Assembly: GCA_963817515.1 (NCBI GenBank)
Contig: CAWFPJ010000002.1
Coordinates: 39,454-103,453, forward strand
Reading direction: 5' to 3'
DNA: 64,000 bases
DNA from: Bryobacterales bacterium
GTDB taxonomy: Bacteria; Acidobacteriota; Terriglobia; Bryobacterales; Bryobacteraceae
Below the pieces are notes generated by a model that ran no database searches, was not told the origin of the DNA, and was given only the letters and a program-made list of their open reading frames with translations. The position numbers were made by a program, and so were the translations under genes. Shown here one piece after another: positions 21,153 to 33,295 of the stretch; position 1 is the stretch's first letter, and the number at the start of each line of letters is the position of its first letter.

Positions 21153-22691
21153 CTAGCGGATCACGTACAAATCCAGATCCGAAGCCAGGTCTCCGTGTTC
21201 CTGAATCCCTACCGTCTTCGCCGCGGCCGCATCCATGGCTGCGGCATCCGGCATCAGGTACTCAAAGGTGGCGAGGATTCGGTAACTTCCGGGCGCCAGG
21301 CCCTCGAAACGATACAGGCCGTGCGCATCGGTTCGCGTGACCCGCAGATCCGTGAGCCGCTTGCGCCCGTCCGGGTCGTATCCTTCCAGGTAGACCGGCG
21401 CGCCAAGCACCGGTTCCGCGGAATCTTTAACAGTCCCATGGACCGCCGCCGGGCCGGACGACAGCACGAACCTGACACGATCGAAGCCGCCCCGGATGAT
21501 GGTTTCGTTCCAGCCGTCCGCGCGCACATCCGGACGGCGGGCGTAGAACGGGCCGGAAAATCCGGCGACATAGTACCCTGGCGGCGGCGCTAACAGGAAC
21601 TGCCAGCGGCCTGGAGCCAGCGGGATTCGGTTGTTGACCAGCTTCAGACTGGCTGCGGGGCCTTCGCCTGCCAGATCTTTGCGGCGCGCCATCACCTGCA
21701 TGGACCCCGATGAGAGCGCTTGCGGCGGCGCGCCCTGGAAATCGAACTGCGTGTCGCGCAGGTTCTGCAGAGGCGTGACAAGCCTCTGGTCCCGTGCCAA
21801 CTCCACAGGTACGTAGGCTGCCTGCAGCAGAGCGCCTGAGGCCGGGTCGAAGCCCTGCCCGAACAATTCGTACCCGCCCGGCGTCAGGGAATTGAATTGA
21901 AAACCGCCGCCTTGCGTGGTGTCGCGGCCCATCTCCGAGATCAGAGTCGCGGTGATTCTGATGTTCGGTTCGAGGTCCGACGTGAACGCGCCCGAGAGAC
22001 TCAATAGCTTTCCCGGCAAGGGGCGGACATCGGCGTTCGCGACCTGCCGGTCCAGATCCACGTCCAAAATTCGCGCGTCCTCCACGCTCGCGGCGGCCGG
22101 AGAATAAGTCGGCAAATAGCCGCCCTCTTCGTAGAGCTTGGCCACGGTGCGGACCACATAGGCGCCGGGCTCAAGACCGTAGATACGGTACAAACCGCGC
22201 TCATCGGTGCGGGCGCGTTGGGTAGCCTGCGGCGGCCGGGTGTTACGGTACGCCACCACATCGTGGTCGGGGAGCCCCACCTCGTTATCGTCGAGCACTG
22301 CGCCGGTGATGGCTCCGTATCGCGGCAGGCGGACGTTGAGGAATGCGGATGCGGCCTCATCCAGAGTTACCGGAGTACCCGCGGAATTCCACCGCTTCTG
22401 CCCATACTCCACCGGCAGAAAATATGGCTTCGAAATCTTGACGACATATACGCCGCCGGGAAGCGAACCGAACTCAAAGATGCCGTAGCGATTGGTGAGC
22501 GCCCGCCGCGGAGATCCAGGGGTTCCGGCGACGGGCTGCACCACCACCAGCGCTCGCGAAAGCGCCTTGCTGGTCTGGTGCTCCACCACGTTGCCGCGAA
22601 TCACGGCGGCATCCAGCGTGGTTTGCAACGTACCCAAGGCCAAGGCGAGCATCAACATCAGCAGCAGCCATTTCGCCATAGCCGGCTTCAT
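21153..22691 (-). CDS. Secreted carboxypeptidase-regulatory-like domain protein (paralog 1)
   Basis: Signal peptide WLLLMLMLALALGTL. Repeated CarboxypepD_reg text (IRGNVVEHQTSKALSRALVVV..., VHGTVKDSAEPVLGAPVYLE...HGLYRFEGLAPGSYRI). Ends ...DLDLYVIR. Confidence 0.7.
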   Translation of the reverse strand: MKPAMAKWLLLMLMLALALGTLQTTLDAAVIRGNVVEHQTSKALSRALVVVQPVAGTPGSPRRALTNRYGIFEFGSLPGGVYVVKISKPYFLPVEYGQKRWNSAGTPVTLDEAASAFLNVRLPRYGAITGAVLDDNEVGLPDHDVVAYRNTRPPQATQRARTDERGLYRIYGLEPGAYVVRTVAKLYEEGGYLPTYSPAAASVEDARILDVDLDRQVANADVRPLPGKLLSLSGAFTSDLEPNIRITATLISEMGRDTTQGGGFQFNSLTPGGYELFGQGFDPASGALLQAAYVPVELARDQRLVTPLQNLRDTQFDFQGAPPQALSSGSMQVMARRKDLAGEGPAASLKLVNNRIPLAPGRWQFLLAPPPGYYVAGFSGPFYARRPDVRADGWNETIIRGGFDRVRFVLSSGPAAVHGTVKDSAEPVLGAPVYLEGYDPDGRKRLTDLRVTRTDAHGLYRFEGLAPGSYRILATFEYLMPDAAAMDAAAAKTVGIQEHGDLASDLDLYVIR

Positions 22692-24232
22692 CGGATAACG
22701 TACAGCTCCAGATCGAGGGGCGTGTCGTGGCTTTCTTCGATCTTCACCGTGCGGGGGCCGGCCGACTCCATAGTTGCCGAATCCGGCGCCTGAAATTCGA
22801 ACGTGCTGAGGATGCGGTAATTGCCGGGAGCCACGCCGTAGAACTGGTACTGGCCGTGAATGTCGGTGCGCGCTTCCCTGACGTCGATCAGGCGCTTGCG
22901 CGCGTCCACGTCGTACGCTTCCAGGTACACCGGCGCGCCCGGCACGGCGTCATGGCCGGCAATGGCTACCGTGCCGTGAAGCTGGCCGGGAGTGGACAAA
23001 CGGAAGGTCACCAGATTGGTGCCAACCTGCGTCGAGGGCAGCAGCACTTCGTTCCAGCCATCGGCACGGCTGCGGTCCACGCCGTCCGGCCTGCCGTCTA
23101 CTCCAGGGCCTCTGAACGTTTCGGCGTAATATTTCGGCGTGGGAGCCACCGCCATGTCCCATCGGCCGGGAGCGAGTTGCGTGGCGCCCTTCGAAAGCCG
23201 CAGGGTTTCGGTCTTGCCCTCACCCGAAAGATCCTTACGGCGCGCCAATACCTGCACCGTGCTGGGGTCGATCGGCTGGCCTTGGGTGTCCTGAAATGAG
23301 AACTGCAGCGGCGGATAGGTGCGCAGGCCGATCCGGATGTCGGTGCGGTCGCGCTCGAGTTCCAGCGGCATGTAAGCGCCTAGCGGTCCGCGGCGATCGC
23401 CCGGCGCGGTTGCGTATAACTCATAGCGGCCGGGGGCCGTGGGAGCGAATTTGAAGTTGCCGTCCTGGTCGCTCGAGAAAGTCTCCGACCCGGTATCGGA
23501 AATCAAGGTCAGAAGCGCCGGCTGCGGTGGCGACAAGGGAACCAGGGCCTGTCCGGCCACGATGAATAACTGGCCCGGGTGCGGGCGAACATTCACGTTG
23601 CTGGTCTCACGGTCGATCTCCACTTCCACCTGATACGCCTGGTCCACGGCGGCCACCTCCTTATAAAACGTAGGGAGATAACCGCCCTCTTCATATTCCT
23701 TGCCCACGGTGCGGACCAGATAGCGGCCGGGCTCCAGACCGGCAATGCGATACATGCCGCGATCGTCGGTCTTCACGCGTGTGACCAGTTGCGGCGGACG
23801 GGTGTTGCGATAGATCACGACGTCGTGCTCCGGCAGGCCCACGTCATTTTCATCCAGGATGACGCCGGTAACGGAGCCGAACCGCGGCATGCGGATGTTG
23901 AGAGACGTGGATTGCGCCTCTTCGAGTACTACGGGAATACCCGGAGCTTTCCAACGCTTTTGTCCATAGAGGGCCGGCGCGAAGCTGCGCCTTGACACGC
24001 TGACCAGATAGGCGCCCGCGGGGATTGTGGGCGTCTCAAAAGCGCCGTAGGAATTGGTACGGACGGAAATTGTCGGGCCGGGCGTGCCTTGCACCGGCGT
24101 TACCACCACAAGGGCGCGCGCCAGCACTTTTCCGCTCTGATGCTCCACCACGGTTCCGCGGATGTTGGCGGCCTGGAGAATACCGGCTGTAAGAGCCAAC
24201 AGCAGACATTCCGGCATTAGATATGGGCGCAT
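22688..24232 (-). CDS. Secreted carboxypeptidase-regulatory-like domain protein (paralog 2)
   Basis: Collinear with paralog 1 (IRGTVVEHQSGKVLARALVVV..., LHGTVAIAGHDAVPGAPVYLE...HGQYQFYGVAPGNYRI, ends DLELYVIR). I place the start at ATG 24232 (MRPYLMPECLLLALTAG), not at ORF-track 24541. Its stop overlaps the paralog 1 start (ATGA). Confidence 0.7.
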   Translation of the reverse strand: MRPYLMPECLLLALTAGILQAANIRGTVVEHQSGKVLARALVVVTPVQGTPGPTISVRTNSYGAFETPTIPAGAYLVSVSRRSFAPALYGQKRWKAPGIPVVLEEAQSTSLNIRMPRFGSVTGVILDENDVGLPEHDVVIYRNTRPPQLVTRVKTDDRGMYRIAGLEPGRYLVRTVGKEYEEGGYLPTFYKEVAAVDQAYQVEVEIDRETSNVNVRPHPGQLFIVAGQALVPLSPPQPALLTLISDTGSETFSSDQDGNFKFAPTAPGRYELYATAPGDRRGPLGAYMPLELERDRTDIRIGLRTYPPLQFSFQDTQGQPIDPSTVQVLARRKDLSGEGKTETLRLSKGATQLAPGRWDMAVAPTPKYYAETFRGPGVDGRPDGVDRSRADGWNEVLLPSTQVGTNLVTFRLSTPGQLHGTVAIAGHDAVPGAPVYLEAYDVDARKRLIDVREARTDIHGQYQFYGVAPGNYRILSTFEFQAPDSATMESAGPRTVKIEESHDTPLDLELYVIR

Positions 24233-24350
24233 AAGTTCTGACCGTATGACGGCTTGGGAGGCTGGAGAGTGCAGGGAAATGTTAGACCGTACGTGACCGA
24301 AAGATGTAGCATTGAATCCGTGGTGTTCGGTATATACTAACCAAAATCGA

Positions 24351-26303
24351 ATGATCAAGCCGGTGGCTCTCATCAGTATGCCGACTCTTTCGGCGCGCTT
24401 TCCTTCGTTCCAACTGGCACTGCTGAAACCAACTCTGGAGAAGGCCGGCATCCCCGCCCAGACGTTCTCTATGTTTATGTATTTTGGGCAACAGATCGGT
24501 TGGAGAATCAACGAAGCCATTGCCGACGTCTGGCCCAGCATGGTGGGTGAATGGATCTGGACAAAGGCCGCTTTCGGAGACCAGATACGGCAGGATGACG
24601 ACGCCTATTTCGGGGCTTACGACTATATTTTCAAAGCGATTTGCCGCGCCGCCGGCTGTAGCACCAAACGCTTTCAAAAGATCCGCGACCAGGAAGCTCA
24701 GAAGTTTATAGACTTCTGCCTGGAGGCCATAGACTGGCGGCGCTTCGGAGTAATTGGCTTTTCCGTGGTCTTCCAGCAAACGCTGGCCAGCCTGGCGCTG
24801 GCTAAAGCTCTGAAGAAGCGATACCCGGAGATTCCCATCATTTTCGGAGGAGCGAGTCTGGAAGACGATATCGCCGACGAGATCATGCGGGAGTGTCCTC
24901 AGGTGGATTACCTGCACTGCGGCGACGCCGAAATCTCATTTCCCGAAATGGTGCAGCGGCTGTATCGCGGCCAATCCATGGAGGGCTTGCGCGGCCTGAT
25001 GTGGCGCAACGGGGACAAAGTGGAGTATGCCGGCCGGGCGCCCAATTTCATGGCCATGGATGAGACTCCGCTGCCGGATTTCGACGAGTACTTCTACGCC
25101 CGCAAGGAAGGCGGCTACGAGGATTACGACGAGGCCTGCGAACCGCTGCTTCCGATCGAGACGGCGCGGGGCTGCTGGTGGGGCGAAAAACACCACTGCA
25201 CCTTTTGTGGTTTGAACCGCTCAGGCATGGAGTTTCGCGCCAAGGAGCCGGAGCGCGTCCTCGAGCAACTGGAAGATCTGGCGCGAAAATACGGGGTTCT
25301 GCACTTCAATGCCATCGACAATATTATGGCGCCGGAATACACGGAGAAGCTCTTCCGCCGCCTGGCTGAGGCCAATAGCGACCTGCAGCTCCATTATGAG
25401 ATCCGGCCCAATTTTTCGCGAACCCAACTCGGCCGGATGCGGAAGGGGGGCCTGTATTCGGTTCAACCGGGCGTGGAGAGCCTCTCTACCAACATTCTGA
25501 AAAGCATGCGCAAGAATACCACCGGCATGCGCAATGTCGAGTTGATCAAGTGGTGCACGTACTACGGGATCAATAATATGTACAACATCCTGATGCGCTT
25601 TCCGGGCGAGACCGAGGAAGACTACAGGGTACAGGCAGCGCTGGTCCCCAAGCTGCTCCATTTGCAGCCGCCCTACGGAATCGTCAAGGCGCGGGCTGAC
25701 CGTGGCTCCCCCATGTTTACCGAACCGGAAACGCAATCCATCACGCGCCTCAAACCGGCCGCCTGTTACGACCACATTTTTCCCAAGGGCTTCAATCTGG
25801 AGCGGGTGTCTTACTATTTCGACCACGAGATGGACAACATTGTGGACGAAGAATGCTACGGAGATCTGCTGGACCATGTGGCCCGGTGGCAGGCTAGTTG
25901 GACCGACGCCGGCCACCCGACGCTGCGCTACCGGAAGGCGCTCAAGAGCATCGTCATCGAAGATAGACGGCGCCGGAAACCTAAGACATATTCGTACGTG
26001 GACGGCCCGGCCGCTCTTTATGAATACTGCGCCGATGCGCGAACGCCGCGCGATATATCCGCCAACATAGGATCCGGGCCGGGTTCCGAAACCTGGATAC
26101 AGGAGGCGCTGGATGAATTCGTAAGCAGAGATCTGATGCTCTTTCTGGATGGCCGATATCTCAGCCTGGCGCTGCCCGAGAATCCGGATTTCGAACTGGT
26201 GACGCCGCCGCGTGCGCTCTCTGAAAGCGGCGCCGGCGCGCAAAGCAACTCGGCTGCGGGTTTGGTTTCACTGGCCGGATTGACAGGAGGACATTCCCAT
26301 TAA
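24351..26303 (+). CDS. B12-binding-domain-type radical SAM enzyme, RiPP-maturase-like (candidate TIGR03975-type C-methyltransferase family)
   Basis: ATG 24351 (MIKPVALISMPTLSARFPSFQLALLKP) is preferred over TTG 24312. Cluster motif ETARGCWWGEKHHCTFCGLN with Cys codons at 25173, 25197 and 25206. The N-terminal region is flavodoxin/B12-like, and there is a C-terminal extension of about 250 aa. The family assignment is from memory of the GCWWG..HC.FCGLN signature and needs an HMM search. Confidence 0.75.
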   Translation: MIKPVALISMPTLSARFPSFQLALLKPTLEKAGIPAQTFSMFMYFGQQIGWRINEAIADVWPSMVGEWIWTKAAFGDQIRQDDDAYFGAYDYIFKAICRAAGCSTKRFQKIRDQEAQKFIDFCLEAIDWRRFGVIGFSVVFQQTLASLALAKALKKRYPEIPIIFGGASLEDDIADEIMRECPQVDYLHCGDAEISFPEMVQRLYRGQSMEGLRGLMWRNGDKVEYAGRAPNFMAMDETPLPDFDEYFYARKEGGYEDYDEACEPLLPIETARGCWWGEKHHCTFCGLNRSGMEFRAKEPERVLEQLEDLARKYGVLHFNAIDNIMAPEYTEKLFRRLAEANSDLQLHYEIRPNFSRTQLGRMRKGGLYSVQPGVESLSTNILKSMRKNTTGMRNVELIKWCTYYGINNMYNILMRFPGETEEDYRVQAALVPKLLHLQPPYGIVKARADRGSPMFTEPETQSITRLKPAACYDHIFPKGFNLERVSYYFDHEMDNIVDEECYGDLLDHVARWQASWTDAGHPTLRYRKALKSIVIEDRRRRKPKTYSYVDGPAALYEYCADARTPRDISANIGSGPGSETWIQEALDEFVSRDLMLFLDGRYLSLALPENPDFELVTPPRALSESGAGAQSNSAAGLVSLAGLTGGHSH

Positions 26304-26352
26304 CCACCTGGCATCTCCCCGCATTGCAACCCCGCGCGAGGAGTTGCTGGAC

Positions 26353-29262
26353 ATGCTGCTGCAGCGTGGAATTTTGCGCCGCAACGAAGCTCAGCCGGTG
26401 CTTTCACGCGATGGCAAACCGGCCCGCTGGATGCTGGATTCGCTGGCCGTCACGATGACCAGCAGGGGAGCGGAACTGGCCGGACAGCTTGTGCTGGAGC
26501 GTCTGCGGAATTTCGATGGCCGGCAAATCGCGACCTACGGGCTGACCGCGGTTCCCATCCTGCAATCGGCAATCGTGCAATCGGCAGTTCTGCAGCCGGA
26601 ACGCCCGTATCACGGTCTGCTGGTGCGCAAAGAGCGCAAAGCGTACGGTTCGCAGAAACTGATTGAAGGCTGCATCGATCCGGACGAGCCCACTATACTG
26701 ATCGACGATTCCGTCGCCTCCGGCGTGAGCATGAGTGAGGGCATCGAGAAACTGGAGGCGGCCGGTATTCGCGTTGAGGGATGCGTGGCTCTGGTGCGGT
26801 TCGGTTGGGAAGGCGGATTTTCGATGCTTGCCCAGCGCGGCCTTCACGTGGAGGCGGTCTACGACATCTTTGAAGACTTCATGGCGCGAATGGAGGGCGA
26901 GCCTGGGCCAGACTATAACCCGACAAAGTGCTTTCCGGAATTTCGCTGGAGCACGCGGCGCGCGCCCGAGGGGCTGCATCCGGCACGTCTTGCCAGAGAG
27001 GTGATGCAGGAGTATTTCGCCAGCGGCGAGTTGCTGAGGCCACCGGACCGCCTGGATCGCGATGACTACGATTCCAGGGGAGGGGCCTGGGTGAGCCTGC
27101 GGTCACGGGACGATATGTTCGAGCGTTACGCGCGCGACGGCTTCTGGCATTTTCCCCAGGAGGGATCCTGGGGAGCGGCCGAGGATATCGTCCGCGCGGC
27201 GTTCCGCACTGCCCTCGAAATGTCCGCGGGCGGCAAGGGCATCAGTCTGCTGGGAGACAGCCATGCCGCTGTGACGTTGTTTTCGAGGCTCGAACGCGCG
27301 GCCATCGGGGAACTGGACAACCAACGCTACGGCATAATCGTAGCCAGTGCGGAGCGGCCGGAAATCATGGGCGGCGCTCTGCCCGGTATGCCGGGAATCC
27401 GTGACGAATGGCAACAGTTCCGCCACGCCCGGTATAACAATGCCGCGCTGTACCCTCACGAACCTTACACGGTCTACCGCCATGAAGTTCGAAAGTTCAT
27501 CGAACCGGGAGCGCCGTGGCCGCCGGGAGGAGTGGGGGACTCGAAGACGCCGGGCGATTTCGGCGCCTGGGCCGTGCGCGCCCGTGAAGTCGTCACCCGT
27601 GAAATAAGCCGGGGCTGCGAACCCTTCACACCGCTGGCGGCGGTCCACCTTCCGGAGAACGCCAGACTCATGTTCGTGACGCTCTATATCGACGGGCGGG
27701 TGCGCGGCTGCATGGGCTCGGAAATCGGCGATGCCGAAGAGGATCTCCGTGAACTGGCGCAGTCGGCCCTTACCGACGAGCGGTTCGAAGCCGCGCCGAT
27801 CGAGGAAGATTCTACCGTGGCGGTGAGCGTCTCGGTGCTCTACAACGAATTGGTTATGGGAGATTTCTCGCGTGAGGAGGTCCGCTTCCGCTATCGGCAT
27901 GGACAGCAGGCGTTGATGCTCGACCAGAAGGGCCGCGAGGGACTGCTGCTGCCATGCGTGGCAACGTGGCTCAGCCTTGACGCCGAGGATTTCGTCGATG
28001 AAGTGATTGACAAGGCGGGCGTCACGCGTCCGCCGTATAACTGGCGGCGCTTTGATTGCGATACCTGGCTGGCGGACGAAGACGGGGTTGCGCGGCTCGA
28101 TGGCGCTTTCAAGGTTGCTGCTTATCATCACACGGCCGATCTTTATAGGGCCGATCTTTCCCTCGCCAAAATCGCTCGCCTGCACGCGGACTATTTGCTG
28201 CGCAACCAGCGCCCGGATGGATCGCTCTACTTCGGCCACTACGCATTTGAGAACACACTCTACCAGGGCATTGACGCGGCTCACCTGGCGCACGCAGGCT
28301 GGATTCTGGCGCGGGCAGGTTTGGCCGACGCCTCAAACGCGGCTCTGGAACGAGCGGCAAATCTATCCGGGGACGAGCCGCTCAGGCTTTCGCGCGACGC
28401 GTTTTTCCTGCTCGCGAAGTGCGAACCGGCCCTGGCCGAGGGTGACCTGCCGGCGGCTGCGGAAATCGCGGCCAGACTGTGGACGTCAATAGACCGTCAT
28501 GGTCGCGTGACCACCTGGAGTCCGCCTGCGGCCGTGGAATCTGATGATGAGGATTCCGCCGATGCCCCCGAGGCTGACACCGGCGTGAGCGAGACCATTG
28601 ACGCTGAGGACCTTCAGAACTATGCTCCTGGCCATGTCCTGCTGGCCCTTGCCGCGGCCGCACGCGCAGGCAATTTTCCCTGCGACGAGCGGAAACTCAA
28701 CCGCGCGTTTCTGTATTACCGGCATCGTTTCCGCTACAAACGGGATTTCGGACAGGTTTCCTGGATGGCGCTGGCCTGGAGCGCCTGGTGGCGGCTGCGG
28801 AATGAACCGGAGTTTGCAGATTTCGTTTTCGAGATCGCCGACTGGATTCTGCAATTTCAGCACACCGGCACCGGAGCTTTTCTTACCGATCACCAACCGG
28901 ATACTCCCGGGTACACTACCGCGGTTTATCTGGAAGGCATCGCTGCCGCGGCGGTGACGGCACTCGCGCGCGGCGACACCACGCGGTACCAGCGATATTC
29001 GGACGCACATCGCCGCGGCTTCGCATTTCTTGACCGGTTGATCATTCAGGATCGCGATAGCTCTGTGCTTCCCAATCCCGGATACGCTCTAGGCGGTCTT
29101 CGCGAAAACCTATACAGCAGTCACATCCGAATCGATTTCGTGGCCCACTCGCTGGCCGCGATTCTCGAACTTTATCCCCAAGCTCTAATTCCAGTAGCAA
29201 ATACAAGAGGAGAATCAGAATGGCAGGCAAGAAGAAACCAAAGAAGCCAGGACCAATTATAG
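26353..29262 (+). CDS. Multidomain fusion protein: type I phosphoribosyltransferase domain + AMMECR1 domain + C-terminal helical-repeat (alpha/alpha-toroid-like) domain
   Basis: GAGGAG (26338-26343) lies 9 nt before ATG 26353; the ORF track starts at TTG 26344. OPRT-like N-terminus with the PRPP loop TILIDDSVASGVSM (about 26692-26735). AMMECR1 signature MFVTLYIDGRVRGCMGS ... GQQALMLDQKGREGLLLPCVA (about 27670-27960). The C-terminal 350 aa or so carry W/Y-rich helical repeats (LLRNQRPDGSLYFGHY, VSWMALAWSAWWRL, AVYLEGIAAAAV). Confidence 0.7.
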   Translation: MLLQRGILRRNEAQPVLSRDGKPARWMLDSLAVTMTSRGAELAGQLVLERLRNFDGRQIATYGLTAVPILQSAIVQSAVLQPERPYHGLLVRKERKAYGSQKLIEGCIDPDEPTILIDDSVASGVSMSEGIEKLEAAGIRVEGCVALVRFGWEGGFSMLAQRGLHVEAVYDIFEDFMARMEGEPGPDYNPTKCFPEFRWSTRRAPEGLHPARLAREVMQEYFASGELLRPPDRLDRDDYDSRGGAWVSLRSRDDMFERYARDGFWHFPQEGSWGAAEDIVRAAFRTALEMSAGGKGISLLGDSHAAVTLFSRLERAAIGELDNQRYGIIVASAERPEIMGGALPGMPGIRDEWQQFRHARYNNAALYPHEPYTVYRHEVRKFIEPGAPWPPGGVGDSKTPGDFGAWAVRAREVVTREISRGCEPFTPLAAVHLPENARLMFVTLYIDGRVRGCMGSEIGDAEEDLRELAQSALTDERFEAAPIEEDSTVAVSVSVLYNELVMGDFSREEVRFRYRHGQQALMLDQKGREGLLLPCVATWLSLDAEDFVDEVIDKAGVTRPPYNWRRFDCDTWLADEDGVARLDGAFKVAAYHHTADLYRADLSLAKIARLHADYLLRNQRPDGSLYFGHYAFENTLYQGIDAAHLAHAGWILARAGLADASNAALERAANLSGDEPLRLSRDAFFLLAKCEPALAEGDLPAAAEIAARLWTSIDRHGRVTTWSPPAAVESDDEDSADAPEADTGVSETIDAEDLQNYAPGHVLLALAAAARAGNFPCDERKLNRAFLYYRHRFRYKRDFGQVSWMALAWSAWWRLRNEPEFADFVFEIADWILQFQHTGTGAFLTDHQPDTPGYTTAVYLEGIAAAAVTALARGDTTRYQRYSDAHRRGFAFLDRLIIQDRDSSVLPNPGYALGGLRENLYSSHIRIDFVAHSLAAILELYPQALIPVANTRGESEWQARRNQRSQDQL

Positions 29263-29664
29263 AAGTGGCCCCGCCCGTGAAGAAGGGCTATGGAGGAATC
29301 ATCGAAGTGGCTCCGCCAACCGGCAAGCGTCGGGTCACCAAGCCGGTGATCGAAATAGCGCCGCCGGTCAAAGGCAAACGGCCCGGTGACGTGATTGTCG
29401 AAGTGGCTCCGGACATCAAGAAAAAGGCCGGTGGTGTGATGGAAATAGCGCCCGCCGTTCAACGGAAGAGCAAACCCCCCGGGGGGCCCATAAAGGAGAT
29501 AGCACCGGCGGTGAAGCCAAAGCCTTCCAAGCCCTGTGGGGCCGATTAAGGAAGTGGCCCCACCTACCAAGCCAAAGCCGAAGCCCATAGTGGAAATCGC
29601 GCCCCCTAAGAAGAAGTACAAGGGGCCGATTGTCGAAGTGGCTCCTCCGACTAAGAAGAAGTAG
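29220..29664 (+). CDS. Lys/Pro-rich repeat peptide (nine IEVAPP-type repeats). The reading frame is interrupted once, at the G4 run 29538-29541.
   Basis: GAGGAG (29207-29212) lies 7 nt before ATG 29220, and the start is 43 nt inside the end of the upstream gene. ORF 29220-29549 encodes six repeats and stops at TAA 29547. The +1 frame continues with three more repeats (GPIKEVAPPTKPKPKPIVEIAPPKKKYKGPIVEVAPPTKKK) to TAG 29662-29664. Removing one G joins them into a 147-aa product. Differences between repeats are mostly synonymous in this strand and frame. Confidence 0.65.
29256..29649 (+). repeat. Nine degenerate in-frame coding repeats (period 39-51 nt) encoding [IVMP][IVMK]E[VI]AP[PAD]
   Basis: Cores: IIEVAPP, IIEVAPP, VIEIAPP, IVEVAPD, VMEIAPA, IKEIAPA, IKEVAPP, IVEIAPP, IVEVAPP. 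They are separated by K/R/G/P-rich linkers. Confidence 0.85.
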
Positions 29665-29696
29665 CAGATAGCGCCGGCGGCTTAGAAAACCGGCGG

Positions 29697-29729
29697 CAAA
29701 AAACACCGGCGGCGGAGACCGCCGGCGCT
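29697..29729 (-). terminator. Rho-independent terminator for the minus-strand respiratory operon, shared with the convergent peptide gene
   Basis: On the minus strand: CCGGCGG-tctccg-CCGCCGG hairpin (plus-strand coordinates 29706-29725) followed by TGTTTTTTG (plus-strand A-run 29698-29703). It lies 55 nt downstream of the DUF420 stop. Confidence 0.65.
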
Positions 29730-29783: not shown

Positions 29784-30194
29784 TCAGAAGTGGTAGAGCA
29801 TCACGTACACCACCACGCCGGTCACGCTCACGTAAAGCCAGATGGGCAGCGTCCAGCGCGCAATTTTCCGGTGTTTGTCGTAACGGGCAGCCAGGCCGCG
29901 GCGCAGCGTGATAGTCGCCAGCACCGGAACCGTCGCGGCCAGCACTGTGTGGGTGAACAGGATGGTGAAATAGACAGTGCGGATGGCGCCGGTATGCTGA
30001 AACTTCACCGAGCCCACCTGCAGGTGATATATCACGTAGCAGACCAGAAATAAACACGAAGTCGCGAACGCGGTTTTCATGACCCGGCGGTGCTGGTCGA
30101 TGCGTTTGCGGCGAATCAGGATGAAGCCCCACACCAGCAGCACGGCGGCCGTGGCGTTGAGCGTGGCATTTACGGTGGGCAGTATTGCGATCAT
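29784..30194 (-). CDS. DUF420 domain-containing membrane protein (CtaM-like oxidase-associated factor)
   Basis: Four predicted TM helices. The NATLNATAAVLLVWGFILIRRKRIDQHRRVM and HTVLAATVPVLATITLRRG pattern is typical of DUF420. Confidence 0.7.
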   Translation of the reverse strand: MIAILPTVNATLNATAAVLLVWGFILIRRKRIDQHRRVMKTAFATSCLFLVCYVIYHLQVGSVKFQHTGAIRTVYFTILFTHTVLAATVPVLATITLRRGLAARYDKHRKIARWTLPIWLYVSVTGVVVYVMLYHF

Positions 30195-30790
30195 GATCGC
30201 TCGCGCTGTAACTGGTGGAGGTCGTGGAGCAGGCGCGCCTTGAAGTCGTCGTCGGAGGTCAGATAGAAGCCGCGAATGCGCCGCCGGCCATCCACCAAGG
30301 CGAACCGCGTGCTGTGACTCAGGCTGCCGTCTACGCCGGTGAGCTTGAAACCCTTGAGCCCGAGTTCGTTGAGGCGCGCCATATCGCCGGTCAGGAAATA
30401 CCAGCGCGCCAGGTCGGCTTTGAAGAATTGCGCGTACTTGGCGAGCACCGGCGGGGTGTCGTGCGCCGGGTCCACCGTGAAGGAAACCAGCTTGACGTCA
30501 GGCGTCGATTCGGTGGAACTTTGCAGTCCGCGCATCTGGTGGCTCATCATGGGGCAGGGGCCGTCGCAAGTTGTGTAAATGAAATCGGCGATCCAGATGT
30601 GGCCATCGAGAGTCTTGCTGTCGAAGGGCTGGCCGGTCTGGAGGATGAGGTCGAACTGTGGAACCTCGCCCAGCACCGGCAGCGGCTTGGTGGTGACGCA
30701 TGAGGCTAGAAGGGATAACAGGAGGCATGCCGTGCCGGTTTGAAAGCCGGCGTGGCACGCACGAGTGCCTGCTCCACGGCGGGTGCTCAT
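30191..30790 (-). CDS. SCO1/SenC family copper chaperone (thioredoxin fold)
   Basis: I place the start at ATG 30790 (MSTRRGAG...LLLSLLASC); ORF-track 31486 is a spurious extension. CDGPC copper motif in IADFIYTTCDGPCPMM and the downstream SHSTRF histidine. Its stop overlaps the DUF420 start. Confidence 0.85.
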   Translation of the reverse strand: MSTRRGAGTRACHAGFQTGTACLLLSLLASCVTTKPLPVLGEVPQFDLILQTGQPFDSKTLDGHIWIADFIYTTCDGPCPMMSHQMRGLQSSTESTPDVKLVSFTVDPAHDTPPVLAKYAQFFKADLARWYFLTGDMARLNELGLKGFKLTGVDGSLSHSTRFALVDGRRRIRGFYLTSDDDFKARLLHDLHQLQRERS

Positions 30791-31518
30791 GTGGTTGACT
30801 TCTGCGCCGCCAACATGCCGGAGGCCAGTAGAAGCGCCAGTCCGAAGGCCGCGGTGATGGCGAGGCTTTCGGCCGGCCCGGGGACGGCGTTGGGCAACCC
30901 GAGCATATAGTTCAGCAGGGAGATTGAATAGGTGAGCGGGTTGATCCACATGAGGGCCCTTACCCATCCGTGCGCCGTGGCCATGGGGAAGAGGGCGCCT
31001 GACACCATCCACATGGGCACCAGCAGCAACATCATGATGCCGTGAAATGCCGCGGTGGAATCCATTTTCCATGCGATCGCAAACCCGAGACCGGTGAGCG
31101 TGAACGAAATTAGAAACATCGCGGCCACAACCCACAACACATCTATCAGCCCGATGCTCACCCCGGCCAGCGGGGCGAAGACCAGCAGCATCAGGCCCTG
31201 GATCCAGCCCAACGTGGCGGCGCCCAGAATCTTGCCCAGCACCAGGCTGGTGCGCGGCGCGGGCGAAACCAGCATGGAAAGCAGAAAACCCTCCCTGCGG
31301 TCTTCGATGATCGAAATGGTGGAAAAGATGGCGGAAAACATCACCGTCAGCACCAGAGTTCCCGAATAGTATCGCGCCAGGTCGCCCGAACCGTAACCGA
31401 TCAGCAGCCAGAAAACCAGCGGCGAAGCCACCACGCTCATCACGCGGCTTTTCTGGCGCCAGAAGCGCAGCATTTCGCGCTGCCACAAGGTTGCTGCGGG
31501 CAAGAAGAAGCTACTCAA
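30787..31518 (-). CDS. ABC-2 type transporter permease
   Basis: Six hydrophobic segments. TLWQREMLRFWRQKSRV is the typical ABC-2 N-terminus. The start is uncertain: TTG 31518 overlapping the ATPase stop, or ATG 31473. ATGA overlap with the SCO gene. Confidence 0.7.
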   Translation of the reverse strand: MSSFFLPAATLWQREMLRFWRQKSRVMSVVASPLVFWLLIGYGSGDLARYYSGTLVLTVMFSAIFSTISIIEDRREGFLLSMLVSPAPRTSLVLGKILGAATLGWIQGLMLLVFAPLAGVSIGLIDVLWVVAAMFLISFTLTGLGFAIAWKMDSTAAFHGIMMLLLVPMWMVSGALFPMATAHGWVRALMWINPLTYSISLLNYMLGLPNAVPGPAESLAITAAFGLALLLASGMLAAQKSTT

Positions 31519-32420
31519 GCGCCGCTCCCGTTTCGCGTATGAACACGTCTTCGAGCGTAGGTTTATGCAGGCCGACGGATTCCACCGCGCCCGGAAACGC
31601 CTCCACCACTTCGGCAATGAAGCGGTGGCCGTTCTGCATTTCCACGCGCACCTGGCCGTCCCGGGTTACAGGGTGCAGGCCGAAGCGCTGCTCAATCTTG
31701 GCCGCCAGCGATTTGCTGTCCGCCGTTTCCAGAAGCACCACATCGCCGCCGATACGCGCGCGCAATTCGCTGGAACTGCCCTGCGCCACGATGCTTCCCC
31801 TCGTGCAACAGGGCCAGCCGGTCGCAACGGTCGGCTTCATCCAGAATGTGGGTGGTCAGCAGGATGGTGACGCCCTCGTGTTCGCGCAGGCTCTCGACGT
31901 GCCGCGAAAGGTCGCGCCGCGCAGCCGGGTCGAGGCCGGTCGAAGCCTCATCCATCAACAGCACCTTGGGCTGATGCAGCAGCGCCTTGGCGATCTCCAC
32001 GCGCCGGCGCAATCCGCCGGAAAGCGCTTCCACCAGATCTTTGCGCCGATCCGTCAAGCCCAGGCGCTCCATGGCGCGGGCCATTCGCTCGCGCAGCAGC
32101 ACGCCGCTGAGACCGTGCAGGTGGCCCTGCGCGCGCAGGTTCTCTTCCACCGTAAGGGCCTTGTCCAGGCTTTGCGTCTGGAAGACCACGCCTACTTCGC
32201 GGCGCACGGCGGCGGGCTCGCGCTCCACATCATGGCCCGCGATGATTGCGCGGCCTTCGGTGGGCGACATCATGGTGGAGAGAATACGGAAGAGCGTGGA
32301 TTTTCCACCGCCGTTGGGCCCGAGAAGGCCGAAGATTTCACCTTTCTTCACGTCGAAGCTGACGCTCGAAAGCGCAACCCGGTCACCGTAGCGATGGGTA
32401 AGGTTTTGAACTTGGATCAC
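31511..32420 (-). pseudogene. ABC transporter ATP-binding protein with one apparent 1-nt insertion near 31792
   Basis: GTG 32420 start (VIQVQNLTHRYG) overlaps the haem O synthase stop (GTGA). Walker A GPNGGGKST, signature LSGGLRRRV, Walker B LLMDEAS. The frame of ORF 31692-32972 gives ...LALLHEGKHRGAG. The frame of ORF 31511-31840 gives SIVAQGSSSELRARIGG.... Deleting one base restores LHEGKIVAQG. Confidence 0.8.
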
Positions 32421-33295
32421 AGACCGGGCCTGTCTAGGAGCATGAGCCCGTAGATAAGCGGCAGGTATATCACGGACGTAATCAGGACATTGCGCGCGCG
32501 CACCAGGCTTCGCTCCAGCGCTACCCGCACACCTGAATATAAAAACCAAAGACCGAGCAGCAGAGCCCCGACAAGATAGATGCGTCCCGACATTCCCAGG
32601 AGACCCGGCACCAGGCTGACCGGAATCAGCGCCAGACCATACAGCACGATCTGCCGCGCCGTGGACCGGCCGTCCGGCTCCACTACGGGCAGCATCAGGA
32701 TGCCGGCGCGCGCGTAGTCTTCCCGATACATCCAGGCGATCGAATAGAAATGCGGGAACTGCCATAGGAAAAGGATCGCGAACAGAACCCACGATTCGCG
32801 CGTGATGCCGCCGGCCGCCGCAGCGTAACCGATCATAGGCGGCATGGCCCCCGGAATCGCGCCGACTGTAGTGGACCACCATGTCCGCTGCTTCATGGGG
32901 GTGTAGAGGAACAGATAACTGACCAGCGTAAAGGCGCCGATCAAGGCCGAAAGCAGATTCACCCCCAGCCACAACTCGAGAAAACCGGCGGTTGAAAGCA
33001 CTGTGCCAAAGGCCAGCGCGCGACCGGCGGACAGCCTGCCCGAAGGTAGCGGCCGGTCCGCCGTGCGGTGCATCTTGCGATCGGCTACGCGCTCATACCA
33101 CTGGTTCAGCGCCGCCGTGCCGGAGGCTATGAGCGCGGTCCCGAAGATGGTGTGCAAGAGCGAGAGAAGATTGATGTGGGTGAGGAAGTCCCACCAGGTG
33201 GCAGCACGGGGCAGCCCGAAGAAATACCCGATCCCTGTGCTCATGAGGATCAGCCAGGTGATTCGCGGTTTCGTCAATTCGATGTAATCGCGCAT
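32417..33295 (-). CDS. ctaB: Protohaem IX farnesyltransferase (haem O synthase)
   Basis: UbiA-family text: YIELTKPRITWLILMSTGIGY, NQWYERVADRKMHRTADRPLPSGRL, FLWQFPHFYSIAWMYREDYARAG. Confidence 0.9.
   Translation of the reverse strand: MRDYIELTKPRITWLILMSTGIGYFFGLPRAATWWDFLTHINLLSLLHTIFGTALIASGTAALNQWYERVADRKMHRTADRPLPSGRLSAGRALAFGTVLSTAGFLELWLGVNLLSALIGAFTLVSYLFLYTPMKQRTWWSTTVGAIPGAMPPMIGYAAAAGGITRESWVLFAILFLWQFPHFYSIAWMYREDYARAGILMLPVVEPDGRSTARQIVLYGLALIPVSLVPGLLGMSGRIYLVGALLLGLWFLYSGVRVALERSLVRARNVLITSVIYLPLIYGLMLLDRPGL

Follow-up and report, generated by a model that had tools for sequence, protein, structure and literature searches.

Parts of the three-gene cassette described here, which lies at 24351-29664 on the plus strand of a 64,000-nt stretch of DNA from a Bryobacterales bacterium (the window; plain coordinates are positions in it, and L-numbers denote related loci that were fetched), are known from several described systems. 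The cassette consists of gene i, for a B12-binding radical S-adenosylmethionine (rSAM) enzyme of the TIGR03975 family, gene ii, for a large fusion enzyme that includes a phosphoribosyltransferase (PRTase) domain, an AMMECR1 domain and an (α/α)6 barrel, and a gene for a repeat peptide. Enzymes of the TIGR03975 family methylate Val and other residues of ribosomal peptides at the β-carbon; PoyC, for example, is responsible for valine β-methylation in polytheonamide biosynthesis. Organisms from archaea to humans have a conserved AMMECR1, which has been implicated in an X-linked syndrome, and no reaction or substrate is assigned to it in the searchable literature. Repeats flanked by KR are found in the precursors of fungal dikaritins such as ustiloxin. 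In the Streptomyces clavusporin system, the B12-rSAM MpcB needs an unrelated partner, MpcC (DUF5825), for any activity; the two iteratively methylate unactivated β-carbons of Pro, Val, Ile and Thr in the precursor MpcA, whose core is rich in Lys, Arg, Pro, Val and Ile, and MpcC has been proposed to be a scaffold or RiPP recognition element (RRE) for MpcB (PMC10849626). Our reading of the window's cassette, to which we give about even odds (a probability of roughly 0.5), is that its two enzymes share the repeat peptide as a substrate, which would receive methyl groups from one and a second modification, linked to phosphoribosyl pyrophosphate (PRPP), from the other.

The cassette resembles the clavusporin system in that a B12-rSAM gene is genetically tied to a second large protein and to a peptide rich in Pro, Val, Ile, Lys and Arg. 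On the other hand, the partner here is a PRTase-AMMECR1-(α/α)6 fusion in which Pfam finds no DUF5825, the candidate substrate, in place of a 39-mer divided into leader, core and follower, is a multi-repeat protein that has an invariant Glu and lacks a leader, neither an S9 peptidase nor a major facilitator superfamily (MFS) transporter is conserved with the cassette, and the hosts are mainly Acidobacteriota. With the proteusins, such as polytheonamide (PoyB and PoyC; TIGR03975), it shares an rSAM that lies far above the TIGR03975 cutoff, but the window peptide has no NHLP or Nif11 leader and matches no NCBIfam or Pfam precursor family, the precursor is built of short tandem units, and the cassette has no epimerase, dehydratase or N-methyltransferase. 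As in the AmmeMemoRadiSam trio (TIGR04335/04336/04337), the gene for an AMMECR1 domain bearing the RGC(I/M)G motif adjoins that of an rSAM enzyme. The sequence-only reading had nevertheless set the cassette apart from that trio, and rightly so: gene ii is below the TIGR04335 cutoff and its AMMECR1 domain is fused to three other domains, no member of the Memo family is present among the annotated neighbours at L001, L002 and L004, and the rSAM of the trio is of the PflA-like TIGR04337 type, whereas that of gene i is a class B, B12-type enzyme of the TIGR03975 kind (TIGR04337 is not among its 21 family matches). Multi-core precursors of peptides that are synthesised ribosomally and modified post-translationally (RiPPs), such as those of cyanobactins and dikaritins, also carry many short cores in one gene, and the cores of the window clade are flanked by Lys/Arg; however, there is no signal or leader here and no dedicated protease, and many clades have no linkers, as in (PEIR)n. 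Set against the general definition of a RiPP, the cassette has a precursor gene adjoining its modifying enzymes in 42 of 42 complete loci, and it has no recognition through a leader, follower or RRE, no protease and no exporter. Judged by these sequence comparisons the cassette is not a proteusin cluster, not mpc and not AmmeMemoRadiSam; we regard it as a new RiPP-like class. Among 8 million full texts, none was found that connects AMMECR1 or a PRTase with RiPPs (subscription-only literature lies outside this scope), which agrees, within the same bounds, with the earlier statement that no pathway of such composition has been described.

The firmest evidence that the three genes belong together comes from their distribution. 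At least 719 homologues of the fusion are present in the protein database, mostly full length among the matches listed, and of 185,579 species-representative genomes 158 encode a relative. Most of these are Acidobacteriota (Bryobacterales, Blastocatellia, Pyrinomonadaceae and Ca. Angelobacter); the other hosts include Myxococcales (Myxococcota), several Actinomycetota and the cultured Mycobacterium sp. OAS707, whose rSAM copy scores 516 bits on TIGR03975. Eighty related loci were fetched, and those with at least 3 kb on both sides (n = 42) were taken as complete. An adjacent TIGR03975-type rSAM gene and a repeat-peptide ORF (open reading frame) are found in all 42, and each of the 17 loci without an rSAM or peptide gene has a contig end where the missing gene would be (17/17), so the co-localisation expected from the window alone is borne out and every apparent absence falls at a contig end. 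The gene order is rSAM-fusion-peptide in the Bryobacterales (including the window) and Angelobacter, peptide-rSAM-fusion in the Blastocatellia and Pyrinomonadaceae, and peptide-fusion-rSAM in the Actinomycetota, Myxococcales and others, with the three genes always on the same strand. The existence of three orders indicates functional linkage rather than inherited synteny, and together the three genes are an obligate module that moves horizontally. No fourth gene is common to the clades in 81 regions (the 80 loci and the window); the next most frequent is a 2-oxoglutarate (2OG) oxygenase, in 22.

Gene i (24351-26303, plus strand; 650 aa) had been recognised as a B12-type rSAM enzyme of the TIGR03975 family, named 'RiPP maturation radical SAM C-methyltransferase', and this assignment is upheld by a score of 563.1 bits against a cutoff of 281.85, with an alignment that runs from end to end of the profile (positions 1-606 of 606). 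A better fit to a non-peptide family had also been considered, and the scores speak clearly against it: the next best family reaches 67 bits, and the lipid, tetrapyrrole, phosphonate and cofactor B12-rSAM families are all at or below that value. PF04055 gives 53.8 bits and PF02310 29.6 bits, slightly below its cutoff of 32.1; despite this, the B12-binding region is included in the full-length TIGR03975 alignment. The signature GCWWGEKHHCTFCGLN is present at residues 274-289, and its Fe-S cysteines C275, C283 and C286 (Cx7CxxC) are kept in at least 97% of 70 homologues. TokK is the sole sequence relative of gene i in the PDB. By these family scores gene i is a full-length TIGR03975 member.

Gene ii (26353-29262, plus strand; 969 aa) begins 49 nt after gene i. 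We analysed its AF2 model (pLDDT 89.7, pTM 0.90) together with residue conservation in a 96-sequence alignment of fusions from several phyla. The PRTase, AMMECR1 and helical parts that had been read from the 969-aa translation are all found, and a fourth domain that had not been listed occupies residues ~190-395. Domain 1 (residues ~17-176; 26401-26880, plus strand) is, by its model, Foldseek, phmmer and loop alignment, predicted to be a type I PRTase fold like that of orotate phosphoribosyltransferase (OPRT), with its PRPP and catalytic loops intact. It matches the Mycobacterium tuberculosis OPRT 5hki with a template modelling (TM) score of 0.75 and a root-mean-square deviation of 2.4-2.8, and human and bacterial OPRTs in phmmer with E = 5e-11. 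Its PRPP loop IDDSVASG aligns with IEDVVTSG, and RKERKAYGSQKLIEG with RKETKDYGTKRLVEG, of human OPRT; the catalytic flexible loop, RKERKxYGS (in RKERKAYGSQKLIEG), is a residue-for-residue match to the human and bacterial enzymes, and R92, K96, D119, S120, S123 and G124 of the PRTase loops are invariant in the 96 fusion sequences. Thus domain 1 shares with PyrE its fold and, residue for residue, its PRPP-binding and Lys/Arg-rich catalytic loops, but it differs in lying inside a 969-aa protein, and its acceptor is unlikely to be orotate.

The previously unlisted domain 2 (residues ~195-385; 26935-27507, plus strand) is strongly conserved and matches no family: it has no Pfam match even at E <= 10, and a profile-profile comparison with the AMMECR1 domain by hhalign is negative (probability 0.1%). 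Its order of secondary-structure elements parallels that of the AMMECR1 domain, and motifs can be paired between the two (RYGIVV...MGGALPxMPG in domain 2, RHGQQAL...GLLLPxVA in AMMECR1), a resemblance by which, hhalign notwithstanding, it is possibly a cysteine-less AMMECR1-like duplicate. Domain 3 (residues ~404-583; 27562-28101, plus strand) is a bona fide AMMECR1 domain with RGCMG, DERF, HG and LLP motifs. It scores 69.8 bits on PF01871 (cutoff 25), the only Pfam family found in the fusion, and matches 1zq7 (E = 3e-9) and 1vaj (E = 1e-7) in Foldseek, with 1wsc also found by Foldseek/phmmer; G452, C453, G455, D475, R477, F478, L533 and P534 are invariant. Domain 4 (residues ~604-940; 28162-29172, plus strand), modelled alone, has a pLDDT of 91.4 and is predicted to be an (α/α)6 barrel, in which about 30 polar residues are invariant. 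Its best PDB matches, with TM scores of 0.5-0.6, are the small class II terpene cyclases 8pak and 6sbg, the GH88 protein 3wiw, GH76 and AprG. It has no Pfam match at E <= 10, its similarity to known families is at the level of the fold, and by sequence it is a member of none of the six-hairpin glycosidase, class II terpene cyclase and LanC-like families. A distant archaeal relative, P0300, passes the Pfam cutoffs for C5-epimerase (C5-epim_C), GH88 and GH127, which places the barrel in the six-hairpin clan. We draw no reaction for the barrel from structural likeness; the best TM scores, about 0.6, are spread over the several kinds of enzyme just named.

The third gene was followed in other genomes by regular-expression scans of the fetched loci. 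A search of a 5.8-billion-protein database with the window peptide returned 19 candidates, none significant; the sequence is of low complexity, so this search is uninformative about distribution. The repeat detector finds 72 matches in 1.26 Mb of related loci, nearly all beside the fusion gene, and one match in both strands of the 64-kb window, at the peptide site. The 69 peptides collected are 44-430 aa long, with a median of 171 (contig ends truncate the shortest), and P, E, V, A, I, R and K make up most of their sequence; they lack Cys and have hardly any aromatic residues. Per residue, the net charge lies between -0.24 and +0.26, and length and linkers vary too; none of the peptides has a hydrophobic N-terminus or a recognisable leader. 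Of their 1740 Glu residues, 74% have I or V at +1, 69% are followed by P at +3 and 62% preceded by P at -1; a second Glu is found at +/-4 in about 51%, and each peptide has between 4 and 58 E[VIM] sites. The only element of the peptide conserved across phyla is the unit (P)-E-[I/V]-x-P. The peptide ORF is conserved at the protein level across phyla. None of the refuting outcomes that were looked for (loss of co-localisation, a better fit of the rSAM to a non-peptide family, an unconserved peptide ORF) was observed, and the first interpretation stands; the IEVAPP repeat first described is the window clade's own version of a shorter general unit, (P)E[IV]xP. Other clade versions are RPEVITEVAPE in the Blastocatellia, PIPEVAPEIRP in the Pyrinomonadaceae and RPIVEVVAE in Angelobacter, and the peptides of L076 and L082 contain about 40 perfect PEIR or PEIK tetrapeptides. 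Near-pure arrays of about 40 consecutive PEIR, PEIK or PEIG units are present at L076 3934-4611, L082 12872-13534, L052 12828-13070 and L059 18982-19818; such tetrapeptide arrays resemble titin PEVK or TonB spacer sequences, and L059 has a second peptide gene about 6 kb away from its cassette.

In the window itself, the peptide's ATG at 29220 lies 43 nt inside gene ii with its own ribosome-binding site, GAGGAG (29207-29212, plus strand, read from the sequence), 7 nt before it, and nine [IVM]xE[VI]AP[PAD] repeats are present, all as originally reported. The repeat units read [IV]xE[VI]APP (for example IIEVAPP) and are spaced by Lys/Arg/Pro linkers. What did not survive is the claim that 29220-29664 is one ORF: the first frame, ORF A (29220-29549, plus strand; 109 aa), stops at 29547-29549 after six [IV]xE[VI]AP units, and repeats 7-9 are in the +1 frame, in ORF B (29536-29664, plus strand; 42 aa). 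Thus, of the three co-directional genes, order and strand are as described and the third is not a single ORF in the window. Removal of any one base in 29525-29544 (plus strand) restores a 147-aa, nine-repeat ORF ending ...VEVAPPTKKK; there is one extra base in this zone, probably in its CCC/GGGG runs. Nine close relatives (L006-L013 and L017) have uninterrupted orthologues at the matching position, 122-185 aa long where complete. Programmed frameshifting was considered and rejected, being unnecessary since all nine have one intact ORF. Either the assembly is in error at the shift, or the gene was recently truncated to six repeats. A truncated pseudogene in a cassette that is decaying in this genome would fit two overlapping ORFs in different frames where nine of nine close relatives have one; we consider it somewhat unlikely, since neither enzyme gene is broken or shortened, the shift coincides with short CCC/GGGG runs, a usual place for assembly or basecalling errors, and ORF A keeps its start codon, its ribosome-binding site and six units, above the minimum of four seen elsewhere. 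The repeats beyond the shift are still perfect, so any frameshift mutation would have to be very recent.

The codons of the nine cores show what is being conserved. The codons for E, A and P are the same throughout at their first two positions and use all four bases at the third; pairwise comparison gives 65 synonymous and 20 non-synonymous differences, all 20 of them V<->I. Tandem Repeats Finder detects no DNA-level array in 29220-29664, and this, with the third-position variation, rules out a DNA tandem repeat or regulatory array in the region. The repeat unit is under selection at the protein level, as the codon differences and the lack of a DNA repeat together indicate.

A second genetic context connects the C-terminal half of the fusion with peptides. 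A search of 1.84 billion representative proteins with the barrel domain found 1009 relatives, mostly fusions of ~930-1000 aa; those of ~575-620 aa consist of AMMECR1 and barrel only, and are 31-33% identical in the barrel to the C-terminal half of gene ii. Four independent contigs with such two-domain genes share one compact operon (L086 1906-4487; L088 5252-8955; L091 4919-10339; L092 6235-9980), made up of PqqD, an HPr-kinase-like ScmC, Transglut_core3, in some cases NTP_transf_5, the AMMECR1-barrel gene and one to three peptides; the AMMECR1-barrel genes lie directly upstream of precursor genes of 39-43 aa (MQE.REEFVEPEIIKHEEKLADVT...). The accessory genes are those of lasso-peptide clusters, and none of the four contigs has a called Asn-synthetase-type lasso cyclase, whose role may have passed to the AMMECR1-barrel protein; alternatively, that protein may add a new step. 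A literature search on ScmC returned only unrelated acronyms. Like the window system, these lasso-like systems adjoin peptide precursor genes, but they differ from it in having no PRTase, no middle domain and no rSAM, and their precursors are of the classical leader-core type. AMMECR1-barrel proteins are thus repeatedly encoded beside ribosomal peptide precursors in a setting independent of the rSAM, which links the AMMECR1-barrel module to peptides a second time. In the leader of the lasso-like precursors, an F-x-x-P-x-I sequence is similar to the lasso YxxPxL motif; the leader also includes 'PEI', which it shares with the window system's repeat units.

We propose that the window's genes make up a self-contained, three-gene RiPP-type post-translational modification cassette. 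Its substrate would be a small, leaderless, intrinsically disordered protein with 4-58 copies of (P)-E-[I/V]-x-P. In a first step, suggested by TIGR03975 membership and by characterised analogues (PoyC, MpcB/MpcC), the rSAM would iteratively C-methylate unactivated carbons in each unit, most likely the β-carbons of the Val/Ile beside the invariant Glu and possibly Pro. In a second step, to which the domain content of the fusion points, the fusion would bind the repeat units through its AMMECR1-(α/α)6 half and carry out a second modification using PRPP through its OPRT-like domain; our best guess is that ribose-5-phosphate would be transferred to the conserved Glu, or to a group made from Glu, and that the adduct would then be processed by the AMMECR1 and barrel domains. 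Conservation of the OPRT catalytic loop, of the AMMECR1 Cys and of the ~30 polar barrel residues argues for catalysis by the fusion rather than scaffolding, and there is a substantial chance that its chemistry is categorically new. The specific proposal that the AMMECR1-(α/α)6 part is a peptide-modifying enzyme which, with the OPRT-like domain, puts a PRPP-derived group (e.g. phosphoribosyl) on the conserved Glu is rather unlikely to be right as it stands; were it so, this would be an unprecedented modification, and the first defined substrate and reaction for the AMMECR1 family, including the human disease gene.

Several observations weigh against the two-step scheme. The pyrE hidden Markov model (HMM) TIGR00336 gives 59.4 bits on gene ii (cutoff 106.8), so that domain 1 is not an OPRT orthologue; the AmmeMemoSam_A HMM TIGR04335 gives 76.1 bits (cutoff 99); and no close structural homologue of domain 4 was found among PDB matches (TM <= 0.6). 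We know of no PRTase that uses a peptide or peptide carboxylate, and the role of the PRTase domain could instead be to bind a ligand or to regulate. Neither a leader family nor a PqqD-like RRE, a protease or an exporter was found to be conserved with the cassette, some of the peptides, at up to 430 aa, are unusually large for a RiPP, and the window's own peptide gene is interrupted by the +1 frameshift. The two-domain lasso-like operons have neither PRTase nor rSAM, so they support peptide handling only and are silent on PRPP chemistry.

It is unlikely, in our estimate, that methylation is the whole story, with the rSAM hyper-C-methylating the repeat protein and the fusion acting as an obligate non-catalytic or scaffold partner whose OPRT-like domain only binds or regulates, for example by sensing PRPP or nucleotides. 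Such a role has parallels in PyrR and PurR, in which PRTase folds are used as regulators, and it would suit the sub-cutoff pyrE score of the fusion. No leader or RRE is detectable in the cassette, so some protein must confer recognition, and the clavusporin B12-rSAM is inactive without a second protein of unrelated sequence (PMC10849626). A scaffold, however, would not need the invariance of the AMMECR1 Cys motif and ~30 polar barrel residues, and a mere binding or regulatory domain sits poorly with the PRTase loop residues listed above, which are invariant in 96 sequences from several phyla.

Quite improbable is a small-molecule system, in which the enzymes would make or modify, for example, a nucleotide-like cofactor or modified base with the repeat protein as a structural or regulatory partner (PEVK- or TonB-spacer-like), or would yield an excised, phosphoribosylated Glu-Val/Ile unit from it as a multi-copy precursor: OPRT, AMMECR1 (a RAGNYA fold) and six-hairpin folds usually have sugar phosphates, nucleotides or carbohydrates as ligands, the cassette has no conserved protease or exporter beside it, pyrroloquinoline quinone (PQQ) and mycofactocin are precedents for cofactors derived from peptides, and a high copy number, as in the ~40 PEIR units of L076 and L082, would suit stoichiometric excision, but it is peptide maturation on which the family of the rSAM was defined, every locus preserves the motif in its amino acids, without exception on the same strand, and the two-domain relatives stand beside classical short precursor peptides.

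If the two-step scheme is correct, it would add to RiPP biology a multi-repeat substrate that has no leader and is recognised by way of its own repeats, what may be the first peptide modification to use PRPP, and a new type of partner for B12-rSAM methyltransferases. Here every complete locus (42 of 42) ties the AMMECR1 domain genetically to a simple candidate for its substrate, encoded in cis, and the cassette could give this domain its first testable substrate. The cassette is widespread in the Acidobacteriota, which a preprint describes as a dominant soil phylum with few experimentally confirmed metabolites (bioRxiv 10.1101/2025.10.02.680145). The most practical organism for genetics on it is the cultured Mycobacterium sp. 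OAS707 (NZ_JADBDS010000004.1), which has a complete cassette in the order peptide-fusion-rSAM (L084 9393-14550) and an acidic peptide with HPE[VI]APE[IV]SETEPQ repeats.

Some clades carry additional genes next to the cassette. A PF13640 2OG-Fe(II) oxygenase (prolyl-hydroxylase-like) is encoded directly 5' of the peptide gene in about 22 Pyrinomonadaceae/Blastocatellia-type loci (within L020-L074, e.g. L027 967-1557, L023 3456-7248 and L029 3457-7156), often preceded by a carbamoyltransferase and a SPASM rSAM gene; in this clade the cassette may be extended by hydroxylation or carbamoylation. Loci of the Angelobacter clade have one or two further TIGR03975 paralogues (628 and 605 bits) after the peptide gene (L043 13728-15611; L053 14157-17666; L056 6181-10025; also L041, L044, L048 and L062), and the repeat unit at these loci is RPIVEVVAE or RPIVEVSPN, not E[IV]AP; the extra paralogues and the altered unit suggest several distinct methylation sites. 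In L004 and L013 (L004 3829-5886), three tandem genes of 59-60 aa with DUF1843, followed by a SPASM rSAM gene, lie directly upstream of the cassette; this set is apparently a separate RiPP-type cluster, and a serine recombinase and a DDE transposase are nearby.

The surroundings of the cassette in the window are as follows. The 118-bp divergent intergenic gap at 24233-24350, between gene i and the upstream minus-strand gene, is as had been claimed; the start of the latter gene, at 24232, is set by comparison with its tandem paralogue. A scan for the sigma-70 consensus finds no match in this gap, and its overall counts are not above those in shuffled sequence; Rfam at gathering thresholds and a tRNA search give no match in the whole window, and thus no riboswitch or other RNA upstream of the rSAM gene. 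The terminator assigned to the downstream end of the cassette must be given up in that form: the T-run that follows the GC-rich hairpins (29694-29724) is on the minus strand, so the hairpins formally belong to the convergent gene (29784-30194) as its terminator, which may act both ways. The number of terminator-like sites in the window is not above the shuffle expectation. Upstream, at 21153-24232 on the minus strand, two tandem paralogous genes of ~510 aa with signal-peptide-like N-termini encode what appear by eye to be carboxypeptidase-regulatory-like repeat proteins; in other genomes these genes are not conserved beside the cassette. The convergent genes downstream (29784-32972, minus strand), which are unrelated to the cassette at other loci, include, again by eye only, those for a small membrane protein, a thioredoxin-fold CxxxC protein (SCO1/SenC-like) and an ABC transporter pair.

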